DNA of 64,000 nt from Squalus acanthias (taxonomy: Eukaryota), in NCBI GenBank assembly GCA_030390025.1, contig JASTWF010000033.1, positions 4,714,001-4,778,000 of the forward strand, read 5' to 3'. The notes below the pieces were generated by a model. That model searched no databases. It saw only the letters and a program-made list of their open reading frames with translations, and had not been told where the DNA came from. Position numbers and translations under genes: made by a program. Every line of letters begins with the position of its first letter. Position 1 is the stretch's first letter. Shown piece by piece: positions 6,061 to 50,019 of this stretch.

Positions 6061-6097
6061 TCCAATCCCCAGTCTTGGAGATGTCCGATCCGGACAC

Positions 6098-12520: not shown

Positions 12521-13624
12521 TAATTGAATCAGAGTTCGGGTTACGCTGTAAGCAAAGGGATTGGATTCTGAACGAAACACCATCAGGGGAGTGTAGAATC
12601 ATGTCAGGGACTTCTCTGAAGCTCTCAGACCCTCCAGCCTGAGGAACATTTTATAAGGGTCAAGACACAGACAAATTTGCTTGTCATTTAGGGTCGTGCT
12701 TTTGGCTCCAACGATATTTTATTATGTTAATGCAAAATATTCCAGTAAACTGAGTAAGGAGATAACTGTATAGGCAGGAATGAGGGTCAGTTAGAAGGTG
12801 TTGTATGAATGACTTTTTAACCGCAGGTCAGCCATGATCGTATTGAATGTTGGAGCAGGATCGAAGGGCCGGAAGTCCTACTCCTATTCCTGATCCTATT
12901 TCTTATGCTCTCATGTTGACCAGTCAGTCTACGTACTCCTGAAGTCTATTATTATCCTCCTCATTGTGTTCTACATTTCCGAGTTTCGATGCCCTGTATA
13001 CCCAACTCTCGGTCATTAAAATATATCAAAGAGAGCACTGGTCCTAATAGCTACCCCTGGGGAACAACACTGTGTACTTCCCTCCAGTCTGAAAAACAAC
13101 CCGTCACCACTACTCTCTGCTTTCTGACCCTTAGCCAATTTTGTATCCATGCTGCCCTGTCCCATTAATCCCTTGGGCTAAAATGTTATGACCAGGTATG
13201 TCACGTGGTACCTTGTCAAACGCCTTTTGAAAGTCCATACACACACCAAGCGCACTACCCTCATGATGTTTATATTTTCGTACCAAAGTGCATCACCTCG
13301 CATTCATCGATGTATGTTTTCTAATTCCTATTGTGAGATGTCATGTAGAGAAATGTATCTTCAATATTTGAAGCAAATTATCAGTTTATTGAATAAAAAA
13401 CAATAATAATAAATAAAGGCAACCATCCACAACTGTGTGTGGATTTGCAATGTTATCAGAAAATCTGAGGATTTATTGCAGAGTAAACTCCTGGCTTGTC
13501 ACATTGTACTAATGCTTTTGGAAGAAGTTGGCGAAGATATAATTTATTACAATCAACAGAATTGCTCTTCTGTATGCTTCAGCCTCACTTTCTAACTTTC
13601 GAAATCTATTTATGCATCGAACAT

Positions 13625-16197
13625 CCTAAACCCCGCCCCACTCCACCTAATATCCTCAGCTCCTCCCCACCCCAGCTAATATCCTCAGCTCCTCCTGAAC
13701 CCACCTAATATCCTCTGCTAGTCCCCACCCCACCTAATATCCTCAGCTCCTCCCCACCCCACCTAATATCCTCAGCTGCTCCCCACTCCACCTAATATCC
13801 TCAGCTCCTCCCCACTCCACCTAATATCCTCAGCTCCTCCTCACCCCACGTAATATCCTCAGCTCCTCCTCATCCCACCTAATATCCTCAGCTCCTCCCC
13901 AGCCCACCTAATATCCACAGCTCCTCCCCACCCCACCTCATATCCTCAGCTCCTCCCCACCACACCTAATATCCTCAGCTCCTCCCCACCCCACCTAATA
14001 TCCACAGCTCCGCCCCACCCAACCTAATATCCTCAGCTCCTCCCCACTCCACCTAAAATTCTCACTCCACCCCACCCACCTAATATCCTCAGCTCCTCCT
14101 CACCCCACCTAATATCCTCAGCAACTCCCCACCCCACCTAATAGCCTCAGCGCCTCCCCACCCCACCTAATTTATTCAGCTCCTCCCCACCCCACCTAAT
14201 AACCTCAGCTCCTCCTCACCCCACCTAATATCCTCAGCTCCTCCCCACCCCACCTAATATCCTCAGCTCCTCCACACTCCACCTAATATCCTCAGCTCCT
14301 CCCCACCTCACCTAATATCCTCAGCTCCTCCTCACCTCACTTAATATCCTAAGCTCATCCCCTCCCCACCTAATATCCTCAGCTCCTGCCTCCCCACCTA
14401 ATATCCTCAGCTCCTCCCCACCCCACCTAATATCCTCAGCTCCTCCCCACCCCACCTAATATCCTCAGCTGCTCCCCACTCCACCTAATATCCTCAGCTC
14501 CTCCCCACTCCACCTAATATCCTCAGCTCCTCCCCACCCCACCTAATATCCTCAGCTCCTCCTCACCTCACCGAATATCCTCAGCTCCTCCCCACCCCAC
14601 CTAATATCCTCAGCTCCTCCCCACCCCAACTAATATTCTCAGCTCCTCCCCACCCCACCTCATATCCTCAGCTCCTCCCCACCCCACCTAATATCCTCAG
14701 CTGCTCCCCACCCCACCTAATATCCTCAGCTCCTCCCCACCCCACCTAAAATCCTCAGCTCCACCCGAACCCACCTAATATCCTCAGCAACTCCCCACCC
14801 CACCTAATATCCTCAGCTCCTCCCCACCCCAACTAATATCCTCAGCTCCTCCCCACCCACCTAATATCCTCAGCTCCTCCCCACCCACCTAATATCCTCA
14901 GCACCTCCCAACCCACCTAATATCCTCAGCTCCTCCCCACGCCACCTCATATCCTCAGCTCCACCCCACCCCATCTAATATCCTCAGCTCCTCCCTACCC
15001 CACCTAATATCCTTAACTGCTCCCCACCCCACCTAATATCCTCAGCTCCTCCCCACCCCATCTAATATCCTCAGCTCCTCCACACCCCAACTAATATCGT
15101 CAGCTCCTCCGCATCACACCTAATATCCTAAGCTCCCAACCCACCCCATCTAATATCCTCAGCTTCTCCCCACCCCACCTAATATCCTCAGATTCCTACC
15201 CACCCCACCTAATATCCACAGCTCCTCCCCACCACACATAATATCCTCAGCTCCTCCCCACCCCACCTAATATCCTCAGCTCCTCCCCACCCCACCTAAT
15301 ATCCTCAGCTCCTCTGCACCACACCAAATATGCTCAGCTCCTCCACACCCCACCAAATATCCTCAGCTCCCCCCACCCCACCTAATATCCTCAGCTCCTC
15401 AACAATCCACCTAATATCCTCAGCTCCTCCCCACCTCACCTAATATCATCAGCTCCTCCCCACCCCACCTAATATCCTCAGCTCCTCCTCATCCCACCTA
15501 ATATCCTCAGCTCCTCCCCAGCCCACCTAATATCCACAGCTCCTCCCCACCCCACCTCATATCCTCAGCTCCTCCCCACCCCACCTAATATCCTCAGCTC
15601 CTCCCCACCCCACCTAATATCCACAGCTCCTCCCCACCCCACCTAATATCCTCAGCTCCTCCCCACTCCACCTAAAATCCTCACTCCACCCCACCCACCT
15701 AATATCCTCAGCTCCTCCTCACCCCACCTAATATCCTCAGCAACTCCCCACCCCACCTAATATCCTCAACTCCTCCCCACCCCACCTAATATCCTCAGCT
15801 CCTTCCCACCTCACCTAATATCCACAGCTCCTCCCCACCCCACCTAATATCCTCAGCTCCTCCCCACTCCACCTAAAATCCTCAGCTCCACCCCACCCCA
15901 CCTAATATCCTCAGCTCCTCCCCACCTCACCTAATATCATCAGCTCCTCCCCACCCCACCTAATATCCTCAGCTCCTCCCCATCCCACCTAATATCCTCA
16001 GCTCCTCCCCATCCTACCTATTACCCTCAGCTCCTCCCCACCCCAACTAATATCATCAGCTCCTCCTCACCCCACCTAATATCCACAGCTCCTGCCCAAC
16101 CCACATAATATCCTCAGCTTCTCCCCAGCTCACCTAATATAATCAGCTCTTCCCCAAACCACGTAATGTCCATTGCTCCCTCCCCACCCAAACTAAT
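13625..16197. repeat. 29-bp C-rich satellite (cctaatatcctcagctcctccccacccca)n, block 1
   Basis: Direct tandem repeats with extreme C/G strand skew. Confidence 0.97.
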
Positions 16198-25143: not shown

Positions 25144-26172
25144 TGAAGAGATCGCAAAGTCTCTGTTTGAAGAATGGACTCAGTCGAGAATATTTTGTGG
25201 ACTTTATGGGATTTTTCTGAGGGTATTTTCCCTGTGATGGGATCACCCTGTGTTGCTATGTGAAAAACTGGTTTGTTAAAACTCCAGAGAACGCTAGGCA
25301 GTTGGCTGTGACAAAACAACTGTCAGTCATCCAGAATATGAAAAATCCCTTCTCACCTCCATCTCAGAAGAGTAGCAGAACAATGAACCCACTGGCCTAG
25401 CCAGCCGGAGAGGAGCCAGTTTTGCAAAACACAAAGACCGAAATATATCCCAGACTTAGGGCCATTGGTCCAATCACGGAGTAGACATGGGTTTGAGGAT
25501 GACCCATCAATGATTCAGCACCGGAGTGTTTCGAAACAAAAGGATTTTAATGATTGGCGGGAAAGATAGGGGTAGCAAGACTCCTATAAAGATAGATACT
25601 TTCCCACCATTCTCTCTCTCTCTCTCGCTCTCGCTGCACCAAGATCTACCTAACATTAAGACCAGAGGAAGAAGCAGCTAATAGGAGCGATCGAGACCGA
25701 CTGCATGTGGGGGTAAGCATGGTCTAGAGTGTCCCAAGCCGGTAACCAGTGGGCTGAGTTTTTCTCAGAAGTGAAGTTTTTGGGCTATTCCGAGGGTGGG
25801 AGCTTCCTTTGGTTCAGCCAGGCGAAGGGGCTTATGCGACTGGGTAATTCGTTGGTAGGGGTGGAATTAGAGTCCACCATAGCAACACTGGAAGTACTGC
25901 ATTTTATAGTCCCCAGTTTGTACTGTATGTTTGTTGATTGTAACCTGGATTTTATTCTCCACAGAGACAATGATTTCGTTTAGTAGTGCACGTTTTAGCC
26001 AGTTTATGTTAGACCAAATAAATATAAGTTTGATTTTTCGCTGAAGCATTCCTGTCCTTGAATTATTTCATTTACACTCTGAATAATAATTCCCGGGTAT
26101 AGAACTTTCGTAAGGCGGGGGCGATTGGAACCGTCCATCTAGCAATTGGGCTAGGATCAAAAACTGCTTACA
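25144..26172 (+). repeat. 5' LTR
   Basis: Starts tgaagagatc and ends cttaca; direct repeat of 43406-44438; TATAAA at 25585, gg|gtaagc donor-like site at 25713, AATAAA at 26017. Confidence 0.92.
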
Positions 26173-26177
26173 TCACT

Positions 26178-26195
26178 TGGCGACCGCGGCAGGAC
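26178..26195 (+). promoter_or_regulatory. Primer binding site, tRNA-Arg(UCG)
   Basis: TGGCGACCGCGGCAGGAC lies 5 nt after the LTR. It is the reverse complement of the vertebrate tRNA-Arg-TCG 3' end as I recall it (...GTCCTGCCGCGGTCG-CCA). Confidence 0.85.
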
Positions 26196-26221
26196 CTGGG
26201 TTAAAAGAGTGTAAATCAGTC

Positions 26222-27900
26222 ATGGACAGCGCTTCTGGCGAAAGATCCCAAATGGAGGAAAGGATTTCTTCATATGTGTTTAAGAAGGTTAACGTCACTA
26301 AGAAGTGGGTGCTAGGCTTGTTGCGTGCTGAGCGTCCGGTGGACGCAGTGGCAGAATGGACGGAGGGCAAGGAGCAGAGGCGCAGCATTGAAAAGGCGAT
26401 ATGGCTCATCTGTCGACAAAGACAAGTCCAACTGCTAGATAAGCAGGTTGCGAGATTAGAGGCAGAGCTCAGGGAGTCCGAGGCACAGTCAGACGCAAGG
26501 GTTGTAGTAGGGAGCAGGTTATGCACGGAGTTAAGGGATGAGAAGTAGGGAAATATAAGGCAGGAGAAAACCTTCCGTAACCATAAGGTGTTCCTGCAAT
26601 GCCAGGTAACTGAGGCAAAGGGGAACGAGAGGATGGTTAGGGAGGAGAACGCTCGCTTGTCGAGTGAGGTAAAGGTGCTGGGAGAGCAGTTGAAGGATAT
26701 TCAGGTGGCATACAGAGACGCCAGCACTAGAGAGTTTGATACGGGTAATCATGGTCCTGGCCAGGAGCAGATCCGGAATTTGACCGATGCTCTATCTAAG
26801 GCCCAAGGGATGGTCTCCTTGGTAGCTCCGGGAATGGCCCGGGTAGATGAGGAAGAGCAGGTGGGAGATAAGGAGGACTGTGAGGTAGAGGAGGACGCTC
26901 GACCACCGCCCGAAGTGCCGGGACCAGGACCCATGTGACCTGTCCGGCAGCGGAAATACGGTGCGACCGTAGACGGTCAAGAGCAAGGAGCACTGCAGAG
27001 TGACTTCGTGGTCCCGTATACGACCCCCCAGCTGCAGGCAATGGTCTCTAACCTGACCAAACTGACCAGCACAGGGGACCCATCTGTCCATTTTACGGAT
27101 GTGGAGCAGGTGGGGGGATCAATCATTGTAACGAAGCTGAGACAGACAAAGTACTTCTATTTTCCCTGGATAGTAGGTTGTACCAGTCGCTCTCAGCGGG
27201 TAGCAAGAGGGGGCAGGGTACGTTAGAGGGGATTAAGGATGACATCCTAGAGGCTATGGGCCTCAATGATGGAAGTCCCTTCTCCCGAGTGGAAAGGACA
27301 CTGCAGTCAGCTGGGGAGGCACCGCAGGCTTTCGCGGACAGGCTTTGGCCTCTCTACCGGAGTGCCTGTGCGGGGGTGCCCGACCGGGCGCAGCTGCAGA
27401 GGGAGCCTAGGGCTCATTGGCTGAGGATCCTGGTGGCGAACAGCCTGCCCAGGATCAAGGCCAAAGCAGAGGAGTGGTTCGATTCCAGGGAACCCCAGAC
27501 CACAGAAGAGAGTGTGATCCGGCAGTTAACTCTCTCTTTTAAGAATGGTAGGGGTGAGGATGACAAACCAAAGGGCAGAGTACACGAGTTAAAGCCTAGT
27601 GGAGGCAACGTTAGAAGAGAGTGGCGCCAGGAAGGGGGTAGCTCAGAGAAGAAGCAGGGTTGTTATGGGTGCGGGAGTAAAGGGCACTGGAGGAAAGACT
27701 GCCCAGTCTCTGACAAAAGGAGCGGGAAAGGGGATCCTCCAGCGCCAGTGCAGAAAGCCGCAGCTGTGGCAGGAAGCAGCACTGATCCGTTCGCGGTATT
27801 AGTGGCTGCTCTCCGCGCAGTCTTTCCGGCAGGGCAGGGTAGGGTGGACACGGCAGCGGGCAGCGTACTCCCATCCGCCCCGAACAAACCCGACCGATGA
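26222..27900 (+). pseudogene. gag: gag (N-terminal coiled coil, capsid-like middle, one CCHC knuckle), disrupted
   Basis: ATG at 26222; heptad-rich QLLDKQVARLEAELRE and ENARLSSEVKVLGEQLKD; CYGCGSKGHWRKDC; in-frame stops at 26546 and 26936; frameshift near 27115. Confidence 0.85.
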
Positions 27901-30466
27901 CTAGGGGCTTCTCAGCCCGTTTACCTGTGCCCACTAAGATATGATGCTTGGAAGAGACCGTGCGTGAAGATGGGGGCGGAGAAGGTGCAAGGGACCTATC
28001 TGCTGGACACTGGAGCTTCAAGCACCAATCTCTATGCGGATAACCCGACCACAGCACCTCTATCGAGCGGGGTCCCATATTACTTAGTATGGTTCACCGG
28101 GAACGAACAGGCTGGGTCTTTCTCCATCCCGCTAGCCATCGATCTGGGTACACTCCGTACGGAGTGGAAATGTGTCCTGATGCGGTGGGAGCGGGAGGGA
28201 ATAGGCTTTTTGGGGGCAGACTTCAGACTGGCCCACAAGATATTGGTGGATTTCCGGAATCACTGTCTTTGGGGGGCAGTGTGCACGGGAAAGGAGAAGG
28301 TGGTGGTAGTTATACCAGGGAAGCAAGGCAAGGGAACCGTGTGTACGATGAAGCCCAAGGGTAATTATGACCTTGAACTTTTGGTCACTTCTACCCCGGC
28401 GGAGTACATAGCGGATGTGCGAGCCAACCTCGCGGCATTCGCTACACACAAGCACGACTGTGGGAGGGTAATAGGGGTGGAGGTCAGAGTAGAAGGAGAC
28501 CCCATGGCCTGACCACAGAAACAGTACAACTTCCCAGTGAGGCAGAGGCGGATTTAGAGACGGCATTGGGATCACTGGTTGGGCAGGATGTGTTGAGTGC
28601 CATAGCAACGCATGTGAACTCTCGGATTTGGCCGGTTAGGAAACCGGGCAATTCGTGGAGAGCCACTGTGGACTATCGGGTTCTTAACAAGAACATCCCA
28701 GCCTGTGCCCACACCGATGCAGCCATAGCCGACCTGATCGGGAGTATCCCGGCATCTGCGAAAACATTCATGGTGCTGAACATTTCGAACGGATTCTGGT
28801 CTATCCCTCTCAAAAGGGAGGACCAGTATAAATTCGCATTCACTTTCAAGGGTCAGCAGTACACATGGACCTGCCTTCCCCAAGGGTTTCATAACAGCCC
28901 TTCTATTTTCCACCAATATATGGCCAACTGTTTAAAAGGGTTTAGCAGACCGCAGCGGCTTGTACAGTACGTGGACGATCTGCTTTTATTCTCCAACGAG
29001 GGGGAAGTGAAATGGCCCCCTGCTGGCTGAGCTGCTGAGTATGTTAAAGGAAGCTGGGTTCAAGGTTAATCCCAAGAAAGCAAAGATCGGCCAGCAGGAC
29101 GTAAATGTCCTCAGGCTGACCATACGTGCTGGCGAGAGGGCCATCGATGAGGCGAAAAGGAAGGCGGTACAGGAGCTACCTGCCCTGACCACGATAACGG
29201 GGGTAAGATCCTTCCTGGGACTCACAGGGCATTGCAGGGATTTCCTAGAGGACTATGCCGCTACGGCAGCTCCTCTACTCCGGCTGCTTCACAAGGGATT
29301 GGGCTGGGAGAGGGATGAGGACTGCATGGCAGCTTTTAGTCATCTGAAGAGAGATCTGCAGACCACGCCGGCTTTAGGAGCGATTGATGGGGGAAAGGAG
29401 TTATTTTTGGAGGTAGCTGCCACAGGGGACAGTTTGAGCGCAGTGCTGCTCCAGGAGCGGCATGGCAAGCTGAGGCCTGTGGTATACTCATCAAGAATCC
29501 TCACAGATGTAGAGAGGGGTACTCCAATTGTGCGAGGCACCTGCTTGCCACACATTGGGCAGTGAGGAGATCACAAATCTTCACGAGAGCGTCACCGTTA
29601 ACTCTCTTAACCCATCATACGCCCACTCAGATGCTTCTGGATGGGAGGATAAAGGACGGCACGGTGAGCAGTGCACGCATTGCTCGCTGGACTTTATTGC
29701 TCTCTCAGACGAATTTGAGTGTGAAAGGCCGCTGTGTGCCTAAGCTCCCCGCAAATTTGATCTACCCAGGGGTGGCCCACAAATGTTCTGTTGAATGGGT
29801 ATGGGACGTAGACATAGGGTTTAGGGCTGGGATCCATGTAGACGGGTCCAGTACAGTGGTGGCAGGGGAGCAATTCACTGGATGCGGGATTTTTGACCCA
29901 AAGGCAGGCATTGCCAAGGTCATTAAACTCCTGAGCACCATGAGCGCCCAGCACGCTGAACTCTCGGCGGTGGTGAATGTGGTTACTCACCCCGAAGTGT
30001 ACCCTACGCCCTATAAAATTTGCTCGGACAGCATGTTCACTTGCAATTCGTGTACAGAATATTTAGCCATTTGGTCTCGTCGCGGGTTCACATCTGCAGA
30101 CGGGAAACCCCTAGCAACAAAGCCATTGTTGCAACAGATCATAACATCGATAGGAACCGAGGGGGATTTCTATATCCACAAAGGCAAGGCCCATTCAAAA
30201 GCAGAACCCCGTGCGGAGGGCAATCAGCAGGCCGACGTGCTAGCCAACGAGGGTGCTCGAACGGGCACGTTTTGGGATCCATATGGGTCGAGTCTGCTAG
30301 CAGCGATCAGAGACAGAGGTGGGACCCAAGGGAGTGCAGGGGTAGCATTGGCCCCGGACCTAAAGATTGTCCAGGCACGGGATTCAGTCCTAAAGACTGT
30401 TCTGGAGACGCTGGCTTAGGGAGATAAGGTAGAGCGTCCATACGGAGTGGCAGGTATCTCGCTAAA
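27901..30466 (+). pseudogene. pol: pol 5' part: protease, RT, degenerate RNase H/tether, second RNase H
   Basis: YLLDTGAS; VDYRVLNK, LNISNGFW, WTCLPQGFHNSP, QYVDDLL; RSFLGL, AVLLQ..RPVVYSSR; then HVDGSS, SAQHAEL, CSDS, KAH and GNQQAD. Several stops and frameshifts. Confidence 0.92.
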
Positions 30467-31035
30467 TACGTAGTACCATTATTAAAGAAGGGTAGTAGGG
30501 ATAAACCAGGGAATTACAGGCCAGTGAGCCTGACATCAGAGGTAGGGAAATTATTGGAAAAAATTCTGAGTGACACAATTAGTCTCCACTTGGAGAGGCA
30601 AGGATTAATCAAGGATAGTCATCATGGCTTTGTCAGGGGGAAAGCATGTCTAACCAATTTGATTGAATTTTTCGAGGGGGTGACTAGGTGTATGGATGAG
30701 GGTTGTGCAGTTAATGTGGTCTACATGGACTTCAGTAAGGCTTTTGACAAAGTCCCGCATGGGAGACTGGTCAAGAAGGTAAAAGTCCATGGGATCCAGT
30801 GCAACTTGGCACATTGGGTCCAAAATTGGCTTCGTGGCAGGAGGCAGTGGGTGATGGTCGAAGGTTGTTTTTGTGACTGGAAGCCTGTGTCCAATGGTGT
30901 ACCGCTAGGATCGGTGCTGGGTCCTTTGCTGTTTGTAGTGTACATTAATGATTTAGATATGAATGTAGGAGGTATGATCAGTAAGTTTGCAGATGACACG
31001 AAAATTGGTGGGGTGGTAAATAGCGAGGAGGGAAG
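30467..31035 (+). mobile_element. CR1 RT fragment inserted into pol (mirror copy ~33846-34414 on minus)
   Basis: RPVSLTS, HGFVRG, DFSKAFDKVPH and KFADDTKI; truncated after NSEEGS. Confidence 0.9.
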
Positions 31036-31078
31036 CTGTCGGCGGTGGTGTACGTGGTTACTCACCCCGAAGTGTACC

Positions 31079-32032
31079 ATAAGAACATAAGAAATAGGAG
31101 CAGGAGTAGGCCAATCGGCCCCTCGAGCCTGCTCCGCCTTTCAATGAGATCATGGCTGATCTGATCCTAACCTCAAATCTAAAGAACACAAGAAGTAGGA
31201 GCAGGACAATGCCACTCAGCCCTTGGGCCGGCTCCGCCACCCACAGGGTCCTGACCGATCCGAACTCAGCCTCATGTCCAATTTCCTGACCGCTCACCGT
31301 AACCCCTAATTCCCTTTACTTCTAGGAAACTATCTATTTCTGTTTTAAATTTATTTAATGATGTAGCTTCCACAGCTTCCTGGGGCAGCAAATTCCACAG
31401 ACCTACTACCCTCTGAGTGAAGAAGTTTCTCCTCATCACAGTTTTGAAAGAGCAGCCCCTTATTCTAAGATTATGCCCCTTAGTTCTAGTTTCACCCATC
31501 CTTGGGAACATCCTTACCGCATCCACCCGATCAAGCCTCTTCACAATCTTATATGTTTCAATAAGATCGCCTCTCATTCTTCTGAACTCCAATGAGTAGA
31601 GTCCCAATCTACTCAACCTCTCCTTATATGTCATAGAAACATAGAAACATAGAATCTAGGAGCAGGAGTAGGCCATTCGGCTCGTCGAGCCTGCTCCACC
31701 ATTCAATGCGATCATGGCTGATCATCCAAATCCAGTACCCTGTCCCTGCTTTAATCCCCACAGTACACATATCCCACCCGACCCCCGTAACCCCACGTAT
31801 TTAATTCCCCCTAACATATCCCATCCTATCCCCATAACCACACATATTTAATCCCCCCCTAACACTAAGGGTCAATTTATCATATCCAAATCAACCTAAC
31901 CCGCACATTTTTGGACTGTGGGAGGAAACCGGAGCACCTGGAGGAAACCCACGCAGACACGGGGAGAATGTGCAAACTCCACACAGACAGTCACCCGAGG
32001 TCAGATTCGAACCCGGGTCTCTGGCGCTGTGA
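31079..32032 (-). mobile_element. CR1 3' end plus 5'-truncated HE1/V-SINE (left-arm copy)
   Basis: ORF 31272..31634 is the CR1 C-terminus; SINE central domain ggaggaaaccggagcacc...tgcaaactccacacagac. Confidence 0.88.
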
Positions 32033-32667
32033 CCTATCTGCTGGACACTGGAGCTTCAAGCACCAATCTCTATGCGGATAACCCGACCACAGCACCTCTA
32101 TCGAGCGGGGTCCCATATTACTTAGTATGGTTCACCGGGAACGAACAGGCTGGGTCTTTCTCCATCCCGCTAGCCATCGATCTGGGTACACTCCGTACGG
32201 AGTGGAAATGTGTCCTGATGCGGTGGGAGCGGGAGGGAATAGGTTTTTTGGGGGCAGACTTCAGACTGGCCCACAAGATATTGGTGGATTTCCGGAATCA
32301 CTGTCTTTGGGGGGCAGTGTGCACGGGAAAGGAGAAGGTGGTGGTAGTTATACCAGGGAAGCAAGGCAAGGGAACCGTGTGTACGATGAAGCCCAAGGGT
32401 AATTATGACCTTGAACTTTTGGTCACTTCTACCCCGGCGGAGTACATAGCGGATGTGCGAGCCAACCTCGCGGCATTCGCTACACACAAGCACGACTGTG
32501 GGAGGGTAATAGGGGTGGAGGTCAGAGTAGAAGGAGACCCCATGGCCTGACCACAGAAACAGTACAACTTCCCCAGTGAGGCAGAGGCGGATTTAGAGAC
32601 GGCATTGGGATCACTGGTTGGGCAGGATGTGTTGAGTCCCATAGCAACGCATGTGAACTCTCGGATT
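32033..32667 (+). pseudogene. Third copy of the retroviral protease region (duplicate of ~27995-28628) in the palindrome spacer
   Basis: TYLLDTGASSTNLYADNP...EGDPMA* is identical in translation to the 27964..28512 ORF. Confidence 0.93.
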
Positions 32668-33802
32668 ATTAAAACAGGGAAGTATTGCTGCAGTTAAATA
32701 AGGTATTGGTGAGACCGCACCTGGAGTACTGCATACAGTTTTGGTGTCCATACTTAAGAAAATACATACTTGCTCTCGAGGCAGTACAAAGAAGGTTAAT
32801 CCCGGGGATGAGGGGGCAACACGGTGGCATAGTGGTTAGCACTGGTGCCTCACAGCGCCAGAGACCCAGGTTCGAATCTGACCTAGGGTGACTGTCTGTG
32901 TGGAGTTTGCAAATTCTCCCCGTGTCTGCGTGGGTTTCCTCCAGGTGCTCCGGTTTCCTCCCACAGTCCAAAAATGTGCGGGTTAGGTTGATTTGGATAT
33001 GATAAATTGACCCTTAGTGTTAGGGGGGGATTAAATATGTGGGGTTATGGGGATAGGATGGGATATGTTAGGGGGAATTAAATACGTGGGGTTACGGGGG
33101 TAGGGTGGGATATGTGTACTGTGGGGATTAAAGCAGGGACAGGGTACTGGATTTGGATGATCAGCCATGATCGCATTGAATGGTGGAGCAGGCTCGATGG
33201 GCCGAATGGCCTACTCCTGCTCCTAGATTCTATGTTTCTATGTTTCTATGACATATAAGGAGAGGTTGAGTAGATTGGGACTCTACTCATTGGAGTTCAG
33301 AAGAATGACAGGCGATCTTATTGAAACATATAAGATTGTGAAGGGGCTTGATCGGGTGGATGCGGTAAGGATGTTCCCAAGGATGGGTGAAACTAGAACT
33401 AAGGGGCATAATCTTAGAATAAGGGGCTGCTCTTTCAAAACTGTGATGAGGAGAAACTTCTTCACTCAGAGGGTAGTAGGTCTGTGGAATTTGCTGCCCC
33501 AGGAAGCTCTGGAAGCTACATCATTAAATAAATTTAAAACAGAAATAGATAGTTTCCGAGAAGTAAAGGGAATTAGGGGTTACGGTGAGCGGTCAGGAAA
33601 TTGGACATGAGGCTGAGTTCGGATCGGTCAGGACCCTGTGGGTGGCGGAGCGGGCCCAAGGGCTGAGTGGCCGGGTCCTGCTCCTACTTCTTGTGTTCTT
33701 TAGATTTGAGGTTAGGATCAGATCAGCCATGATCTCATTGAAAGGCGGAGCAGGCTCGAGGGGCCGATTGGCCTACTCCTGCTCCTATTTCTTATGTGCT
33801 TA
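32668..33802 (+). mobile_element. 5'-truncated CR1 with a nested SINE
   Basis: VRPHLEYCIQFW...LIPGMRG | SINE | MTYKERLSRLGLYSLE..., then the 3' tail. Confidence 0.9.
32812..33250 (+). mobile_element. tRNA-derived SINE of HE1/V-SINE type
   Basis: A box tggcatagtgg, B box ggttcgaatc, central domain gtggagtttgca...gggtttcctcc...ggtttcctcccacagtcca, and a CR1-derived tail with ttctatgt repeats. Confidence 0.85.
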
Positions 33803-34414
33803 TGGTACACTTCGGGGTGAGTAACCACGTACACCACCGCCGACAGCTTCCCTCCTCGCTATTTACCACCCCACCAATTTTCGTGTCATCTGCAAACTTA
33901 CTGATCATACCTCCTACATTCATATCTAAATCATTAATGTACACTACAAACAGCAAAGGACCCAGCACCGATCCTAGCGGTACACCATTGGACACAGGCT
34001 TCCAGTCACAAAAACAACCTTCGACCATCACCCACTGCCTCCTGCCACGAAGCCAATTTTGGACCCAATGTGCCAAGTTGCACTGGATCCCATGGACTTT
34101 TACCTTCTTGACCAGTCTCCCATGCGGGACTTTGTCAAAAGCCTTACTGAAGTCCATGTAGACCACATTAACTGCACAACCCTCATCCATACACCTAGTC
34201 ACCCCCTCGAAAAATTCAATCAAATTGGTTAGACATGCTCTCCCCCTGACAAAGCCATGATGACTATCCTTGATTAATCCTTGCCTCTCCAAGTGGAGAC
34301 TAATTGTGTCACTCAGAATTTTTTCCAATAATTTCCATACCACTGATGTCAGGCTCACTGGCCTGTAATTCCCTGGTTTATCCCTACTACCCTTCTTTAA
34401 TAATGGTACTACGT

Positions 34415-37400
34415 ATTTAGCGAGATACCTGCACTCCGTATGGACGCTCTATCTTATCTCCCTAAGCCAGCGTCTCCAGAACAGTCTTTAGGACTGAATC
34501 CCGTGCCTGGACAATCTTTAGGTCCGGGGCCAATGCTACCCCTGCACTCCCTTGGGTGCCACCTCTGTCTCTGATCGCTGCTAGCAGACTCGACCCATAT
34601 GGATCCCAAAACGTGCCCGTTCGAGCACCCTCGTTGGCTAGCACGTCGGCCTGCTGATTGCCCTCCGCACGGGGTTCTGCTTTTGAATGGGCCTTGCCTT
34701 TGTGGATATAGAAATCCCCCTCGGTTCCTATCGATGTTATGATCTGTTGCAACAATGGCTTTGTTGCTAGGGGTTTCCCGTCTGCAGATGTGAACCCGCG
34801 ACGAGACCAAATGGCTAAATATTCTGTACACGAATTGCAAGTGAACATGCTGTCCGAGCAAATATTATATGGCGTAGGGTACACTTCGGGGTGAGTAACC
34901 ACATTCACCACCGCCGAGAGTTCAGCGTGCTGGGCGCTCATGGTGCTCAGGAGTTTAATGACCTTGGCAATGCCTGCCTTTGGGTCAAAAATCCCGCATC
35001 CAGTGAATTGCTCCCCTGCCACCACTGTACTGGACCCGTCTACATGGATCCCAGCCCGAAACCCTATGTCTACGTCCCATACCCATTCAACAGAACATTT
35101 GTGGGCCACCCCTGGGTAGATCAAATTTGCGGGGAGCTTAGGCACACAGCGGCCTTTTACACTCAAATTCGTCTGAGAGAGCAATAAAGTCCAGCGAGCA
35201 ATGCGTGCACTGCTCACCGTGCCGTCCTTTATCCTCCCATCCAGAAGCATCTGAGTGGGCGTATGATGGGTTAAGAGAGTTAACGGTGACGCTCTCGTGA
35301 AGATTTGTGATCTCCTCACTGCCCAATGTGTGGCAAGCAGGTGCCTCGCACAATTGGAGTACCCCTCTCTACATCTGTGAGGATTCTTGATGAGTATACC
35401 ACAGGCCTCAGCTTGCCATGCCGCTCCTGGAGCAGCACTGCGCTCAAACTGTCCCCTGTGGCAGCTACCTCCAAAAATAACTCCTTTCCCCCATCAATCG
35501 CTCCTAAAGCCGGCGTGATCTGCAGATCTCTCTTCAGATGACTAAAAGCTGCCATGCAGTCCTCATCCCTCTCCCAGCCCAATCCCTTGTGAAGCAGCCG
35601 GAGTGGAGGAGCTGCCGTAGCGGCATAGTCCTCTAGGAAATCCCTGTAATGCCCTGTGAGTCCCAGGAAGGACCTTACCCCCGTTATCGTGGTCAGGGCA
35701 GGTAGCTCCTGTACCGCCTTCCTTTTCGCCTCATCGATGGCCCTCTCGCCAGCACGTATGGTCAGCCTGAGGACATTTACGTCCTGCTGGCCAATCTTTG
35801 CTTTCTTGGGATTAACCTTGAACCCAGCTTCCTTTAACATACTCAGCAGCTCAGCCAGCAGGGGGCCATTTCACTTCCCCCTCGTTGGAGAACAAAAGCA
35901 GATCGTCCACGTACTGTACAAGCCGCTGCGGTCTGCTGAACCCTTTTAAACAGTTGGCCATATATTGGTGGAAAATAGAAGGGCTGTTATGAAACCCTTG
36001 GGGAAGGCAGGTCCATGTGTACTGCTGACCCTTGAAAGTGAATGCGAATTTATACTGGTCCTCCCTTTTGAGAGGGATGGACCAGAATCCGTTCGAAATG
36101 TTCAGCACCATGAATGTTTTCGCAGATGCCGGGATACTCCCGATCAGGTCGGCTATGGCTGCGACGGTGTGGGCACAGGCTGGGATGTTCTTGTTAAGAA
36201 CCCGATAGTCCACAGTGGCTCTCCACGAATTGCCCGGTTTCCTAACCGGCCAAATCCGAGAGTTCACATGCGTTGCTATGGCACTCAACACATCCTGCCC
36301 AACCAGTGATCCCAATGCCGTCTCTAAATCCGCCTCTGCCTCACTGGGGAAGTTGTACTGTTTCTGTGGTCAGGCCATGGGGTCTCCTTCTACTCTGACC
36401 TCCACCTCTATTACCCTCCCACAGTCGTGCTTGTGTGTAGCGAATGCCGCGAGGTTGGCTCGCACATCCGCTATGTACTCCGCCGGGGTAGAAGTGACCA
36501 AAGTTCAAGGTCATAATTACCCTTGGGCTTCATCGTACACACGGTTCCCTTGCCTTGCTTCCCTGGTATAACTACCACCACCTTCTCCTTTCCCGTGCAC
36601 ACTGCCCCCCAAACACAGTGATTCCGGAAATCCACCAATATCTTGTGGGCCAGTCTGAAGTCTGCCCCCAAAAAGCCTATTCCCTCCCGCTCCAACCGCA
36701 TCAGGACACATTTCCACTCCGTACGGAGTGTACCCAGATCGATGGCTAGCGGGATGGAGAAAGACCCAGCCTGTTCGTTCCCGGTGAACCATACTAAGTA
36801 ATATGGGACCCCGCTCGATAGAGGTGCTGTGGTCGGGTTATCCGCATCGAGATTGGTGCTTGAAGCTCCAGTGTCCAGCAGATAGGTCCCTTGCACCTTC
36901 TCCACCCCCATCTTCACGCACGGTCTCTTCCAAGCATCATATCTTAGTGGGCACAGGTAAACGGGCTGAGAAGCCCCTAGTCATCGGTCGGGTTTGTTCG
37001 GGGCGGATGGGAGTACGCTGCCCGCTGCCGTGTCCACCCTACTCTGCCCTGTCGGAAAGACTGCGCGGAGAGCAGCCACTAATACCGCAAACGGATCAGT
37101 GCTGCTTCCTGCCACAGCTGCAGCTTTCTGCACTGGTGCTGGAGGAACCCCTTTCCCGCTCCTTTTGTCAGACACTGGTTAGTCTTTCCTCCAGTGCCCT
37201 TTACTCCCGCACACATAACAACCCTGCTTCTTCTCTGAGCTACCCCCTTCCTGGCGCCACTCTCTTCTAACGTTGCCTCCACTAGGCTTTAACTCGTGTA
37301 CTCTGCCCTTTGGTTTGTCATCCTCACCCCTACCATTCTTAAAAGAGAGAGTTAACTGCCGGATCACACTCTCTTCTGTGGTCTGGGGATCCCTGGAATC

Positions 37401-37492
37401 GAACCACTCCTCTGCTTTGGCCTTGATCCTGGGCAGGCTGTTCGCTACCAGGATCCTCAGCCAATGAGCCCTAGGCTCCCCCTGCAGCTGCG
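34415..37492 (-). pseudogene. Inverted copy of gag 3' end and pol (PR-RT-RH-RH)
   Basis: Minus-strand ORFs 37179..37367, 36471..36917, 35851..36315, 35316..35840 and 34462..35319 match the plus-strand copy. Confidence 0.93.
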
Positions 37493-38456
37493 TTCATACG
37501 GAGTGGCAGCTGTCTCGGTAAATACGTAGTACCATTATTCAAGAAGGGTAGTAGGGATAAACCAGGGAATTACAGGCCAGTGAGCCTGACATCAGTGGTA
37601 GGGAAATTATTGGAAAACATTCTGAGGGACAGAAATAGTCTCCACTTGGAGAGGCAAGGATTAATCAAGGATAGTCATCATGGCTTTGTCAGGGGGAGAT
37701 CATGTCTAACCAATTTGATTGAATTTTTCGAGCGGGTGACTAGATGTATGGATGAGAGTAGTGCAGTTGATGTGGTCTACACGGACTTCAGTAAGGCTTT
37801 TGACAAAGTCCCGTATGGGAGACTGGTCAAGAAGGTAAAAGCCCATGGGATCCAGTGCAACTTGGCACATTGGGTCCAAAATTGGCTTCGTGGCAGGAGG
37901 CAGAGGGTAATGGTCGAAGGTTGTTTTTGTGACTGGAAGCCTGTGTCCAATGGTTTACCGCTGGGATCAGTGCTGGGTCCTTTGCTGTTTGTAGTGTACA
38001 TTAATGATTTAGATATGAATGTAGGAGGTATGATCAGTAAGTTCGCAGATGACACGAAAATTGGTGGGGTGGTAAATAACGAGGAGGGAAGCCTCCGGCT
38101 ACAGGACGATATAGACGGGTTGGTTAGATGGTCAGAACAGTGGCAAATGGAATTTAACCCTGAAAAGTGTAAGGTGATGCATTTTGGGAGGACGAACAAG
38201 GCAACGGAATACACAATGAATGGTTTGACCCTAGGAAGGACAGAGGATCAGACGGACCTTGGTGCGCATGCACATAGATCCAGGAAGGCAGCAGGACAGT
38301 TTGATAAGGTGGTTAAAAAGGCATATGGGAAACTTTCCTTCATTAGCCGAGGCATAGAATATAAGTCATGATGCGGAGATGCCGGTGTTGGACTGGGGTG
38401 GACAAAATTGAGAGGTCGCACAACACCAGGTTATAGTCCAACAGTTTTATTTGAAA

Positions 38457-38494
38457 TCACAAGCTTTCGGAACTATCGCTCCTTCCTCAGGTGA
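38457..38494 (-). ncRNA. Type I hammerhead ribozyme motif (inverted copy)
   Basis: Exact reverse complement of 38843-38880. Confidence 0.75.
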
Positions 38495-38842
38495 AGTAAA
38501 TTGGATACAGAATCGTCAGAGCATATATAGATGGAAAAAAAAGCATGTGTACTTTACAATTGCAGACCAATAAATTAAATCATCCTGACTATCTGCCGAG
38601 GTGTGATAAAGTTAATTAAGTCAGCCAGCTTTTGACACGTTAGAACCCCTGCGACTTCACCTCATTGTCTCAGTTGTATCTTGCTATATCTTTTGATGTG
38701 GTACCTTCCTGGCTGACTTAATTAACTTTATCACACCTCGGCAGATAGTCAGGATGATTTAATTTATTGGTCTGCAATTGTAAAGTACACATGCTTTTTT
38801 TTCCATCTATATATGCTCTGACGATTATGTATCCAATTTACT

Positions 38843-38880
38843 TCACCTGAGGAAGGAGCGATAGTTCCGAAAGCTTGTGA
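38843..38880 (+). ncRNA. Type I hammerhead ribozyme motif
   Basis: Stem I tcac/gtga; core CTGAGGA 38847-38853; stem II ggagc-gata-gttcc (one G-U pair); GAAA 38869-38872; short palindromic aagctt stem III. Confidence 0.75.
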
Positions 38881-39565
38881 TTTCAAATAAAACTGTTGGA
38901 CTATAACCTGGTGTTGTGCGACCTCTCAATAGAATATAAGAGCAGAGAGGTTATGATGGAGCTGTACAAAACGGTAGTTAGGCCACAGCTGGAATACTGT
39001 GTGCAGTTCTGGTCGCCACACTATAGGAAGGATGTGATTGAATTGGAGAGGGTGCAGAGGAGATTCACCAGGATGTTACCTGGGCTGGAGCGCTTCAGCT
39101 ATGAAGAGTGACTGGACAGGCTGGGGTTGTTTTCCTTAGAGCAGAGAAGGCTGAGCGGGGACCTGATTGATGTGTACACAATTATGAGGTGCATAGATAG
39201 GGTAGATAGAAAGGAACGTTTTCCCTTAGTAGAGGGGTCAATAACCAGAGGGCATAGTTTCAAGGGAAGGGGCAGGAGGCTTAGAGGGGATTTGATGAAA
39301 AACTTTTTCACCCAGAGTGTGGTTGGAGACTGGAACCTGAAAGGCTGGTAGAGGCAGGAACCCTCACAATATTCAAGAATCATTTAGATGAGCACTTGAC
39401 ACGCCACAGCTTACAAGGCTAGGGACCAAGTGCTGGAACATGGGATTAGAATAGACAGGGCTTGATGGCCACACGGACACGATGGGCCGAAGGGCCTCTT
39501 TCTGTGCTGTATAAATCTATGACACTGTGACTATGACTATGACCTTCTCTATGACTCTATGACTC

Positions 39566-40903
39566 TAAAGGAAGGGATGGTTTTCAGAGGGGAACAGTGG
39601 GCAGTTCCGCAGCAGCACCGGAGAGAATTCCTTCATTTGGCCCACGAGGGTCCAGGAGCGGGGCACCCCGGGCCGGTGACCACCTGGCAACGGGTGGAAC
39701 AGGCAGGGCGGTGGCCGCAACTGAGGGAGGACGTTCGCGACTTCTGCGCAGATTGCTTGGTGTGTGTTGCAAACAACCTTGACCCCCCAAAAAGGAAGGC
39801 ATCCATGGGACACATTAGGAGAGTGGAGGGACCATGGCAGTGCATACAGGTCAATTATATCGGACCGCTGCCCACCGCGCAGGGGGGGTTACAAGTACTG
39901 CCTGGTCCTGGTGGATGTATACCCTAAATGGGTAGAAGCCATCCCATGCCGAACAGCCACAGCTTTGTGGACCGCAAGGATTCTAGTGAGAGAAGTGTTA
40001 TCTAGGTGGGGGCTAACACGGTATGTGGAGTCCGATCAGGGGAGTCACTTCACAGGGGCAGTCATGCAGGCGACTCTGAAGATGCCAGGTGTAGAGGGTA
40101 AATGGCACGTCGCACACAATCTGCAGTCATTGGGGATTGTGGAGCGGATGAATAGGACCATCAAGGAAAGGTTACGGAAGGAGACAGGAGACTCGCCTAG
40201 AAAATGAGCGGAGGTCTTGCCATTAGTTCTGATGGGGGTCCGAGCCAGCCCGTCTAGAAGCACAGGGTATTCCCCGCATGAGCTCGTGACTGGCAGGGTC
40301 ATGAGGACGCCCAGCCATGTACTGGCCCCGGTTCTCACGGAAGGTCAGTTGAGAGAGGTGAACCGGGACAGGTTTGTTAAGAATTTGTTTGAGCATCTCA
40401 GACAGATCCATTGGCAGGCTGCCAGTAACATGGGGAAGCAACATCATAGAAATCGTTTATTGCTTGAGCCTCAGAGGCACCACGAGTGGAAGGTCGGAGA
40501 TCAAGTAATGGTTAGAAACTTCGCCAGGGTAGGGACTTTTGAACCGATATACATGGGACCATACAGTATCGTGGATAGGGCTAGTCCGATGGTATACGCG
40601 GTCAAAATGCCTCGACGCACTAAGTGGTTCCATATCAATCAGTGCAAGCTTTTCAACCCTGGGGAAAGAGCTGATAAGAGGAGGAAACAGCAGGGAGTGG
40701 TGAGCTGCGCTACAGGTGTGGGTCTCCAGCCCATAATCTGGGACTGTGAGGAGCCCACAGAGGGACCAGTCGTTCCGCCTGTGGGGGCAGCAGTGAGAAG
40801 GAGTGCCAGGATCCCACAGCCGAGGGAGCCATGGACGCCTCCTTACACACCGTTGAACGAAGGAAGCCGGAGTCGTAAGAGGCCCAGGGCCGAGGAGACC
40901 TAG
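39566..40903 (+). pseudogene. pol: pol 3' part: integrase
   Basis: HEGPGAGH...CLVC (HHCC); PWQCIQVNYIGPLP (first catalytic D replaced by N); LVDVYPKWVEA; SDQGSHF; GIVERMNRTIK; GPY motif. One frameshift and one stop. Confidence 0.92.
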
Positions 40904-41086
40904 TGTGGCCACCCGGAGACGGGTGGCGCTGTACATAACTTCTTTCTCTCCTGTCTGTTGCCTTAGCTTGTCTGTATAGTTGGATTGACATGTATGCTGT
41001 GGATACCAAATGTAATCGTGTGTAGCTGCGTCTGGAAAGGTGAGGCATCACCAAGGACAACGTTGCATTCTGTGTGTTTTCAGAGA

Positions 41087-42337
41087 ATGCTTAAGAACAA
41101 GATGAAGTCAGCCATGGTAGTCCTGAGCGTCATGATTGAAGCCAGCGCGAGTCACAGGGGCGACACCGAGGAATCGGTTATCTTCGGCTGCACCGGCGGA
41201 GACGGACCGACCGTGACCACTGGAGGTAGCTCGAAGGATGGGGCGAGCGTTTATCTCCACGAGGGAAGATGGCCTGGATGGCTGGGGTCGAATTCATCCC
41301 GGTATTCCAGACATGACAAGTTCACCTATGGTGAAGCGTCCATCCCACGCCCGAGAATAGGGGTTACCACCTCCTGGGTTAGGGTAACAGAGGGTAAACG
41401 GGTGTGCCTTAGCTGTAGGGGACACATTCCACTGGGAAGGTGGTGGTGGCTCAGGAAACTGAGCGCGGATACAGGGGACCTAACAGCTGACTGGGAAAGA
41501 CTAAGTAATGACACGTACCGGACGATCACGGGTTCTCAGGGAGGAGTGAATGTGTGTTGGGATAAGTGGTGGGAATCTGAGGAAGCGCTTTATGTGTGTA
41601 TGTGGGGGTCGGAAAAGATCTGCCCAGCGGGTGTGTCGATGGCGTTTAGCAGGACACCGGGGGTGGGATCGGTTGGGATCGGAGTGCGGACTCCTGTGTG
41701 ATCCCAAATCCCCCGAATACCATCAACGCCACAGAGCTCATCTCATACACCAGGAAGCCCCCGCCCAGAGCCCCGACGGTACAGACGGCTGTAGATGTGT
41801 GTCCCACCACCACCAGGGGTCCAGGGAATGGGTTGGTGTTAATCCCGACTGAAAAAGTGTTGTTTCAGAACGTGCTCTACGCCGTGGCAGCCGTGACCCT
41901 GAACCTGACTGAAGTCCACCTGCCTGTGTGGTGTCCAAGGAAGACGGAGAAGCTTTATGAAGCTCTGTTAAAAGCGATGTTACAGGAATTTTTTGAACTG
42001 GACCATGGACATGTAGAGAAAGAACAGCTTTATAATCTGAATGTTGGGGATAGTGTGGGGTCCGGGAGGCAGTGAATAGGGACCTGGAACAATTCCTTTT
42101 CTGCCAGAACATCTCACTGAGTTAATAAAGACCGTTGAACTCTCCCAGAAACATTTTTACACTTTGGAGCAAAAGACAGTAGAAGTGGGTGAGGAGATCA
42201 AGGGGATTGTCTCGCCACCATGGTGGGACATCGGTCTGAGTATAGAGATTCCTCCCTGGATCCGCATCTGTTCCCATGCATCAGTTATCATACAATTGTT
42301 GCTTGTAAGCTACTTATTCTACACCAGCTGCGGGTGA
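41087..42337 (+). pseudogene. env: env-like glycoprotein gene, frameshifted and probably internally deleted
   Basis: Acceptor-like tgtgtgttttcag (ends 41083) just before ATG 41087; signal-like MKSAMVVLSVMIEASA; Ig-like domain; sequons NSS, NDT, NAT, NLT. A frame not in the ORF track (42080-42337) reads LPEHLTELIKTVELSQKHFYTLEQKTVEVGEEIKGIVSPPWWD...ICSHASVIIQLLLVSYLFYTSC, i.e. heptad, Trp-rich segment, TM. Confidence 0.72.
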
Positions 42338-42491
42338 TGGAGCCAGATGCTCCGAGCGCGGTGGCAAGGGGTGTTAGATCGATCCGGAAAGGTGTCATTG
42401 ATTTATGTTGATGATGGTTTCTCCCTGCAAAAACTTGTAATGTACCAAGGTTCTGTAAGCAAGTGTATAGTATTCTGGTTATAGCTTTACA

Positions 42492-43135
42492 CTCTGTATT
42501 GTGCGATGTGCGCTGTTGTATTTTTGTAATGTGTTACCACCTGTCAATGCTAAACTGTGTGATGTTCGCTGTTGTATTTTTGTAATGTGTTACCACCTGT
42601 CAATGCTGTACTGTGTGATGTGCGCGGTTGTATTTTTGTAATGTGTTACCACCTGTCAATGCTGTACTGTGTGATGTGCGCTGTTGTATTTTTGTAATGT
42701 GTTACCACCTGTCAATGCTGTATTGTGCGATGTGCGCTGTTGTATTTTTGTAATGTGTTACCACCTGTCAAAGCTAAACTGTGTGATGTTCGCTGTTGTA
42801 TTTTTGTAATGTGTTACCACCTGTCAATGCTGTACTGTGTGATGTTCGCTGTTGTATTTTTGTAATGTGTTACCACCTGTCAATGCTGTACTGTGTGATG
42901 TTCGCTGTTGTATTTTTGTAATGTGTTACCACCTGTCAATGCTGTACTGTGTGTTGTGTGCTGTTGTATTTTTGTAATGTGTTACCACCTGTCAATGCGG
43001 TACTGTGTGATGTTCGCTGTTGTATTTTTGTAATGTGTTACCACCTGTCAATGCTGTACTGTGTGATGTGCGCGGTTGTGTTATTGTAGTGTGTTACCAC
43101 CTGTCAATGCTGTACTGTGTGATGTGCGCGGTGAC
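42492..43135. repeat. 56-bp minisatellite (~11 copies) inside the provirus between env and the 3' LTR
   Basis: Unit gctgttgtatttttgtaatgtgttaccacctgtcaatgctgtactgtgtgatgtgc; period 56. Confidence 0.95.
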
Positions 43136-43394
43136 TTTTTGGTAGCCTCCTGTGGATCTTATTAATTTTCTGTATTTTGATTTGAAGTTTGTCGGTGGGA
43201 ATTTGAACCCAGCCGTTTGAATGTGTTCAGAAGCCGTTTCGCTGATGTTTTTACTCAGTAGAAGGGAACTATGACACGCGGTAAGGGGTGCAGTTCTGGG
43301 GTTTAAAATGTAAAATCAGAGAAACAGCTTCACTTGCGGGAGACTTTGACCTTTGCTCTCTCGTCGAGTGATGCTTTGTGGAAAGACAAGCATC

Positions 43395-43405
43395 AAACGG
43401 GGGAC
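43395..43405 (+). promoter_or_regulatory. Polypurine tract
   Basis: aaacgggggac lies immediately before the TG of the 3' LTR. Confidence 0.65.
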
Positions 43406-44438
43406 TGAAGAGATCGCAAAGTTTCTGTTTGAAGAATGGACTCAGTCGAGAATATTTTGTGGATATTATGGGATTTTTCTGAGAATATTTTCCCTGTGAT
43501 GGGCTCACCTGGGCAGATATGTGAAAAAGTGGTTTGTTAAAACTCCAGAGAATGCATGGCAGTTGGCTGTGACGAAAGAACTGTCAGTCATCCAGAATAT
43601 GCAAAGGCACTTCTCACCTCCATCTCAGAAGAGAAGCAGAACAATGAACCCACTGGCCTAGCCAGCCGGAGAGGAGCCAGTTTTTCCCAACACAAAGACC
43701 GAATTATGTTCCAGAATTAGGGCCATTAGTACAAACACGGAGTACACATGGGTATGAGGATGACCAATTACTGATTAAGCACTGGAGTGCTTCGAAACAA
43801 AAGGATTTTAAAGATTGACGGGAATGATAGGGGTAGCAAGACTCCAATAAAGATAGATCCTTTCCCACCATCTCTCTCTCTCTCTGTCTCGCTCTCGCCC
43901 CAACAAGATCGACCTAACAAGAAGTACCAGAGGAAGAAGCAGCTAAGCGGAGCGATCGAGACGGACTGCGTGTGGGGGTAAGCATGATCTCGAGTGTCCC
44001 AAGCCCGTAACCAGAGGGATCAGAGTTTCTCAGAAGTGAAGCTTTTGGGCTATTCCGAGGGTGTGAGCTTTGTTTGGTTCAGCCAGGCCAAGGGGCTTAT
44101 GCGACTGGGTAATTCGTTGTTAGGGGTGGAATTAGAGTCCACCATGGCAACAAGGGAATTACTGCTTGTCATAGTCCCCAGTTTTGTACTGTATGTATGT
44201 TGTTTGTAACCTGGATTTTATTCTCCACAGAGACAGTGATTTCGTTTAGTAGTGCACGTTTTAGCCAGTGTATGTTAGACCAAATAAATATAAGTTTGAT
44301 TTTTCACTGATGCATTCCTGTCCGTGACTTATTTCATTTACACTCTAAATAATAATTCCCGGGTATAGAACTATCGTAAGGCGGGGGCGATTCGAACCGT
44401 CCGTCTAGCTGTTGGGCCAGGATCAAAAACCACTTACA
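43406..44438 (+). repeat. 3' LTR
   Basis: tgaagagatc...cacttaca, colinear with 25144-26172 but with many substitutions. Confidence 0.92.
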
Positions 44439-46062: not shown

Positions 46063-46064
46063 GA

Positions 46065-46650
46065 AACTGAGAACAGGGGAAGTAAGGGGAACACGGTAAC
46101 TGTTTAATTAGAAACAGTGAACAGGGGAAGTAAGGGGAACACGATAACTGTTTAATTAGAAACAGAGAACAGGGGAAGTAAGGGGAACACGGTAACTGTT
46201 TAATTAGAAACAGTGAATAGGGGAAGTAAGGGGAACACAGTAACTGTTTAATTAGAAACAGTGAACAGGGGAAGTAAGGGGAACACGGTAACTGTTTAAT
46301 TAGAAACAGTGAACAGGGGAAGTAAGGGGAACACAGTAACTGTTTAATTAGAAACAGTGAACAGGGGAAGTAAGGGGAACACAGTAACTGTTTAATTAGA
46401 AACAGTGAACAGGGGAAGTAAGGGGAACACGGTAACTGTTTAATTAGAAACAGAGAACAGGGGGAGTAATGGGGAACACGGTAACTGTTTAATTAGAAAC
46501 AGTGAACAGGGGGAGTAATGGGGAACACGGTAACTGTTTAATTAGAAACAGTGAACAGGGGGAGTAATGGGGAACACGGTAACTGTTTAATTAGAAACAG
46601 TGAACAGGGGGAGTAAGGGGAACACGATAACTGTTTAATTAGATATAGCG
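46065..46650. repeat. 48-bp minisatellite (~12 copies)
   Basis: Unit ggggaagtaaggggaacacggtaactgtttaattagaaacagtgaaca; period 48. Confidence 0.95.
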
Positions 46651-50005: not shown

Positions 50006-50019
50006 TTATACAATTTTAT

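Follow-up and report, generated by a model that had tools for sequence, protein, structure and literature searches.

The ratio of Gag to Gag-Pol is central to retroviral assembly, and the mode of Pol expression is a genus-level trait. The stop codon at the gag-pol junction is UAG in the gamma- and epsilonretroviruses and in SnRV, and UGA in SSSV (UGAAGA), ZFERV (UGACGA), and RMEV (UGAAGU); readthrough in the epsilonretroviruses has not been verified experimentally, and the signals of fish and amphibian retroviruses are almost untested (available text of PMC13517186; for the last point, as regards epsilonretroviruses). The same text assigns the UGACUA hexamer to alphaviruses and a dicistrovirus and, in the part available, makes no mention of Loki, shark, or ERV-L elements. 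In XtERV-S, a class III, ERV-L-like element, a TGA interrupts the shared frame of gag and pol, and the authors of that study suggest that this stop is suppressed (passages available of PMC8278194). The mechanism class and the occurrence of UGA at a retroviral gag-pol junction are, that is, already known. Here we describe the gag-pol junction of a decayed, rearranged endogenous retrovirus (ERV) of the SnRV-like clade in 64,000 nucleotides (nt) of the Squalus acanthias genome (assembly GCA_030390025.1, contig JASTWF010000033.1, positions 4,714,001 to 4,778,000; hereafter the window), where gag ends in UGA followed by CUAG. An earlier note on this locus had set its UGA against the UAG that gamma- and epsilonretroviruses read through; published UGA junctions in SSSV, ZFERV, RMEV, and XtERV-S make that contrast incomplete.

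Read directly, gag ends with CGA (27895-27897) and TGA (27898-27900), followed by CTAG (27901-27904). The open reading frames (ORFs) 27052-27900 (282 residues, with a Pfam zf-CCHC match) and 27901-28512 share one frame, with this single stop between them; after the stop the frame stays open for 203 codons, starting LGASQPVYLC and continuing into YLLDTGAS. The observation of a stop codon at the gag-pol junction is confirmed, as is the remark that the inverted copy of this region carries TGACTAG (36977-36983, minus strand) and is no independent evidence, because it is 98.8% identical to the original over 4645 nt. The heptamer TGACTAG occurs 10 times on the two strands of the window (~8 expected by chance), so only its position is informative; CTAG follows one of the 58 TGA triplets in 26221-30420 (base-composition probability 0.0037, calculated post hoc).

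The best explanation of this arrangement is that Gag-Pol was made by UGA readthrough in the active virus, to which we assign a probability of about 75%. The UGACUA hexamer lies in frame between two ORFs, which is the type II readthrough arrangement. Most ribosomes would terminate at the gag UGA and yield Gag; a small share would insert an amino acid at the UGA and continue in frame, yielding Gag-Pro-Pol. What makes the stop leaky would chiefly be its UGA-C(UA) context, a mechanism shared with alphaviruses and vertebrate readthrough genes, and not an MLV-type pseudoknot. UGA-CUA alone gives 1.5% readthrough in HEK-293T cells (PMC4132726, part available), and a downstream structure is only conditionally required for UGACUA (PMC13517186, part available). 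No slippery heptamer occurs in 27701-28010, and the two remaining frames are blocked by stop codons both before and after the junction. The downstream RNA structure whose prediction the earlier note had proposed did not emerge: folds of 40-200 nt do not go beyond those of shuffles (z -1.7 to +1.5), no candidate for a simple pseudoknot appears at the junction (compared with 63 of 200 shuffles), and Rfam gives no match in 27600-28400 at E up to 1; a short hairpin is the only recurring feature (Table 1). From the layout, the ATG position (see below), the lack of a slippery site, the closed frames, and the lack of a fold, we infer that readthrough was low-level and driven by context and that a downstream structure was unneeded.

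Gammaretrovirus-type (type III) readthrough, that is, UAG-G with an H-type pseudoknot after an 8-nt spacer, was considered and rejected: the stop is UGA, with 0 pseudoknot candidates.

The stop might instead be real and conserved and Pol be translated from its own RNA, spliced or separately initiated (the foamy virus route), or through reinitiation downstream of gag; we regard this as unlikely. The sole in-frame ATG before the protease DTG is at 27970 (codon 24); it aligns with the first residues of a related, unnamed Pol protein (P0008), CmiERV of the elephant shark has an ATG at a similar place, and a junction with an in-frame UGA may mask a different route, as in Tca2 (part available of PMC2194720). 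However, protease similarity to relatives begins 9-14 codons after the stop, upstream of that ATG, which argues against reinitiation there: the ATG is just 12 codons before the catalytic Asp, so 10-15 upstream codons of protease similarity would be lost. Moreover, the gamma-, epsilon-, and SnRV-type readthrough viruses have this layout, in which a stop separates gag from pol within one frame, and separate expression of Pol would leave the leaky context unexplained.

The window copy itself cannot make Gag-Pol, because gag contains in-frame stops upstream of the junction (26546-26548, TAG; 26936-26938) and a frameshift near 27110-27120, and pol carries several frameshifts; with these other lesions in gag and pol, a single stop in this copy proves nothing without relatives. 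Of 23 runs listed, four, each from a different organism and study, supply contigs (276, 1295, 1433, and 38) that align to 26520-28100. Of the 210 differences tabulated, 40 are listed, and the weakest computed among these reach 75% in one run. The internal gag stop at 26936-26938 differs in 98-100% of the depth in all four runs, that is, it is private to this locus. Position 27888, adjoining the junction, differs at 99-100% in 4/4 runs, and 27896 differs in 99-100% of the depth in the three runs that cover it (16, 40, and 2 contigs), so the CGA codon before the stop is not the family state. At 27898-27904 no difference is found among the 40 listed in the four runs; no other letter appears to dominate the junction in the family contigs. 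A majority sense codon in place of the stop, which would refute the reading of the earlier note, does not appear among the differences listed.

More distant relatives point the same way. In run X14, the end of one divergent contig carries an in-frame UGA at the corresponding position, with CUG after it. An intact Gag of 619 residues (P0081), which every gag piece in the window matches, is 54% identical in its C-terminal half and ends one residue past the last residue of the window Gag. In CmiERV scaffold 2 (SnRV-like; available part of the PMC4422223 dataset, by eye), a CCHC knuckle and tail are followed by CAA-UGA-CAU and an in-frame path to the protease motif, and the start of the protease resembles that in the window; a second CmiERV sequence has an in-frame UGA-CUC. 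Among 8000 longer candidates scored, which count weakly, none is a fused Gag-Pol. UGA-C is common to two distant relatives (UGA-CUG in the X14 contig, UGA-CAU-G in CmiERV) and CUA is not. The stop looks like a feature of the family and the clade and not mere decay. As for the conservation of TGACTA(G) that the earlier note had asked about, the close family shows no majority difference among those listed, whereas CUAG is absent from the X14 contig and CmiERV; on present sequences, CUAG in its exact form is not shared by the whole clade. Its claim that Gag-Pol was made by readthrough stands as the best explanation of a stop that is in frame and apparently kept in relatives, and as a reading of sequence.

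These comparisons also bear on a second alternative, that the TGA is a decay mutation (e.g., CpG deamination) in a once continuous gag-pol frame and the CUAG is coincidental. The copy is old (long terminal repeats, LTRs, 8.9% apart) and CpG-depleted (observed/expected 0.61), it has two other gag stops, and in three of the four runs no changes are commoner than C>T and G>A; a sense codon could sit beyond the differences listed, a coelacanth gene model (P0015) is continuous, and ten lokiretrovirus consensus sequences are annotated as fused gag-pol (available part of PMC7947760). We nevertheless consider decay improbable: the private stop at 26936-26938 shows at ~100% in the same table in which the junction shows no listed difference, P0081 ends at the junction, and CmiERV and the divergent contig have UGA there. 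Least probable is ribosomal frameshifting near the junction with an in-frame appearance created by an indel in this copy, which has several elsewhere: the sole indel among the listed differences is near 27111, the junction lacks a slippery heptamer and stops block the two remaining frames, CmiERV and the SnRV-type viral locus L002 are also in frame, and contigs spanning 27731-27964, 27879-28069, and 27705-27943 suggest the same frame relation (with 1-2 unplaced gaps).

Several points weigh against readthrough of a conserved UGA. Some of the copies, perhaps as many as half, could carry a sense codon here and still agree with the differences listed; run X1 has no counted cover at 27896; and, as a second control, the stop at 26546-26548 is equivocal, having no listed difference either. 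P0081, on a 2078-nt contig, is known from protein alone, and its end need not be a stop codon. The coelacanth model P0015 is stop-free for 264 residues upstream of the protease Asp; this is 1 of 15 clade proteins with a recognised motif (30 checked), a count that gene-caller starts make weak either way. No stimulatory fold was found within 200 nt, and readthrough in MoMLV (6-8%; PMC13517186, part available) exceeds the ~1.5% from context alone. Finally, the gag-UGA-pol junction of Tca2 gave no readthrough in a yeast reporter (PMC2194720, part available).

Two of these sequences merit a separate remark. P0081 is open across the in-frame TAG at 26546-26548, which may be common to part of the family or simply lie among the differences outside those listed. 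In P0015, Gag-like sequence runs into protease where SnRV has its stop; this may be a locus that has lost the stop or an artefact of the gene model.

The features of the element are collected in Table 1. The order LTR, primer-binding site, gag, pro, reverse transcriptase (RT), tether, RNase H, integrase, LTR, with dual RNase H present, is that of Retroviridae.

Table 1. Coordinates of the ERV and its gag-pol junction in the window.
Feature	Positions	Strand	Evidence or remark
5' LTR (TG...CA)	25144..26172	+	90.4% match to 43405-44439; ends by sequence reading
Primer-binding-site-like stretch, starts TGG	26178..26195	+	sequence just 3' of LTR
gag in pieces: coiled-coil-like N-terminal part, capsid-like part, one CCHC knuckle, 65-codon tail	26222..27900	+	
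CCHC zinc knuckle (nucleocapsid)	27658..27705	+	Pfam zf-CCHC E 3.7e-5
Candidate readthrough site: gag stop UGA and CUAG context	27898..27904	+	sequence reading
Protease frame; catalytic DTG is codon 36 after the stop	27901..28512	+	52% to P0008, 31-34% to frog and coelacanth Pol
5-bp hairpin directly after the context, only recurring fold feature	27905..27918	+	no more stable than shuffles
RT and start of tether, frameshifted pieces	28530..29517	+	Pfam RVT_1, RT_RNaseH_2; 73% to P0008, 46% to L002
Tether and RNase H (dual RNase H layout), interrupted by insertion of long interspersed element (LINE)-type RT	29520..30430	+	Pfam RNase_H E 2.8e-16, RT_RNaseH
Inverted duplicate of 27389-32032; junction copy at 36977-36983	32850..37492	-	98.8% over 4645 nt
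Integrase, in pieces, after ~9 kb of insertions and duplications	39556..40903	+	Pfam Integrase_H2C2, rve; 67-71% to P0008
env-position ORFs, hydrophobic ends	40967..42337	+	
3' LTR after purine-rich tract	43406..44438	+	8.9% different from 5' LTR

A PDB search of the protease gave non-significant retropepsin matches only (best E 0.25), and atlas searches returned only generic CCHC/Gag and RT clusters. The env-position ORFs (only ~1.4 kb, 40967-42337) have no Pfam or PDB match, and no CX6CC was seen in them; they could be a divergent or a deleted env. No target-site duplication was found, that is, the flanks of the two LTRs do not match; the locus is rearranged, and therefore both LTRs may not stem from one insertion. 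Transversions outnumber transitions among the differences between the LTRs (62 vs 30) and are also numerous where the window copy departs from its family. The N-terminal part of gag (26222-26938) looks like a coiled coil, a resemblance it shares with P0081 and CmiERV scaffold 2; in Loki elements an smc-like region lies upstream. Between 30430 and 39556, pol is interrupted by nested LINE-type RT fragments, the 4.6-kb inverted duplication (98.8%), a second, direct copy of the protease region (637 nt, 32031-32667), and a perfect inverted repeat of 222 nt (38407-38930); this arrangement reflects either a recent rearrangement of the locus or an error of assembly. Long tandem arrays with units of 18, 29, 56, and 48 nt (3685-6100, 13490-16000, 42380-43240, 45980-46850, and 49940-51100) produce several long spurious ORFs.

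The RT is 73% identical to that of P0008, ~50-53% to frog and coelacanth proteins named NYNRIN-like, and 46% to L002, the SnRV-type locus that scores highest among 13 viral loci, with 31-37% to gamma- and epsilon-type loci over comparable lengths. In an RT tree (70 rows, 176 columns, midpoint root; matches covering fewer than 135 of 166 query residues omitted; no foamy, ERV-L, or Loki reference), the window RT groups with P0023 in a 16-row set (93/84, unstarred) that is nested in a 29-row set (100/100) excluding PERV and the gamma-like rows; the P0023 RT is the SnRV RT row of a published alignment supplement and is 99.4% identical to L002. An RT that groups apart from gamma- and epsilonretroviruses, together with a long-tailed Gag with one CCHC and an in-frame stop before the protease, places the element in the SnRV-like clade. 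A protease-based locus search found none in viral contigs and one false bacterial match in metagenomes; a search by RT alignment found 13 loci, distant retroviruses only, in viral contigs and two distant matches in prokaryote assemblies. The junctions of these 13 viral loci are UAG-G in 10 and UGA-A in one, with two unresolved or defective; none is UGA-CUA. Lokiretrovirus identity was rejected on RT motifs compared by eye (LPQGFHNSP in the window; CPFGY-NSP or MPFGYINSG/LPFGYINAG in Loki) and on the SnRV grouping, in a tree with no Loki row; the Mononegavirales fusion protein-related Env (PF00523), a Loki trait, has no Pfam match on the short, broken env-position pieces.

In the literature searched (subscription papers, Repbase, and bioRxiv supplements were outside reach), we found no statement of UGA-CUA readthrough in a retrovirus; term searches of PMC7947760, PMC9040795, PMC10435555, PMC5210030, PMC12440569, and bioRxiv 2023.10.26.564294 gave none. 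In the available part of the PMC7947760 supplement, compared by eye, the junctions of 8 of 24 lokiretrovirus consensus sequences are visible, and 7 of the 8 are UGA-CUA: Ofa, Cne, Pyo, and Sau have UGA-CUA-G and Dcl, Lro, and Bsp have UGA-CUA-A, with an ambiguous base then CUA-A in Tfu. The gag UGA-CUA is in frame with pol sequence, although the printed Bsp consensus shifts frame before the protease motif; besides the ten others annotated as fused gag-pol, six are annotated as pol only. The terms readthrough, stop codon, and frameshift do not occur in the main text of PMC7947760, and the passages of PMC8278194 available contain no discussion of the context of the UGA-CUA in the African bullfrog ERV. 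UGA-CUA thus appears to be present but unremarked, in the text searched, in published sequences of a bullfrog class III ERV and of lokiretroviruses.

A tentative and broader proposal is that UGA-CUA (type II) readthrough, hitherto catalogued for alphaviruses and host genes, may be widespread but unrecognised among the retroviruses of fish and amphibians as a route to Gag-Pol; the signal is present in this SnRV-like family, in the ERV-L-like bullfrog element, and in most of the visible lokiretrovirus consensus junctions with a gag stop. Lokiretroviruses reportedly form the sister group of all other retroviruses; given that placement, context-driven UGA readthrough might be early or even ancestral, with UAG plus a pseudoknot, or frameshifting, taking its place later. 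Of the present findings, this wider pattern, which spans SnRV-like, class III, and Loki lineages, most deserves further attention. If UGA-CUA is functional at the junction described here, retroviruses share a minimal leaky-stop signal with host genes and alphaviruses, pipelines misjudge such ERVs when they score the stop as a defect, and how Pol expression evolved over the three lineages becomes testable.

Among known systems, the heptamer UGA-CUAG is identical to that of Beier-Grimm type II sites (the alphavirus nsP3/nsP4 UGA-CUA; vertebrate OPRL1 and AQP4; sources available in part), although readthrough there is measured and here read from sequence, and alphaviruses often add an extended stem-loop. 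The fish and toad retroviruses SSSV, ZFERV, and RMEV also have UGA between gag and pro, and locus L004 has an in-frame UGA-AGA, the SSSV hexamer; however, they are epsilon-related and none has UGACUA. The SnRV-type L002 resembles the window in spacing, that is, 68 vs 65 codons from knuckle to stop and 32 vs 36 codons from stop to protease Asp, and the SnRV junction is UAG-GGC where the window has UGA-CUAG; unlike SnRV-like ERVs, the window has env-position ORFs with no recognisable retroviral transmembrane subunit. CmiERV lineage I of the elephant shark (PMC4422223, part available) is SnRV-like with an in-frame UGA, but UGA-CAU-G replaces CUAG. XtERV-S and XlERV-S have UGA-CAG (by eye), and XtERV-S differs further in lacking a CCHC knuckle and having a dUTPase; their relative, the African bullfrog ERV, a defective copy, has UGA-CUA-G at the homologous place (PMC8278194, supplement file 5, by eye). 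The lokiretroviruses share the dual RNase H and the UGA-CUA junction and differ in their RT motifs and in the protease, which is nearer the stop in the window; the window junction would thus work like the Loki junctions, in an element whose different RT motifs set it outside that group.

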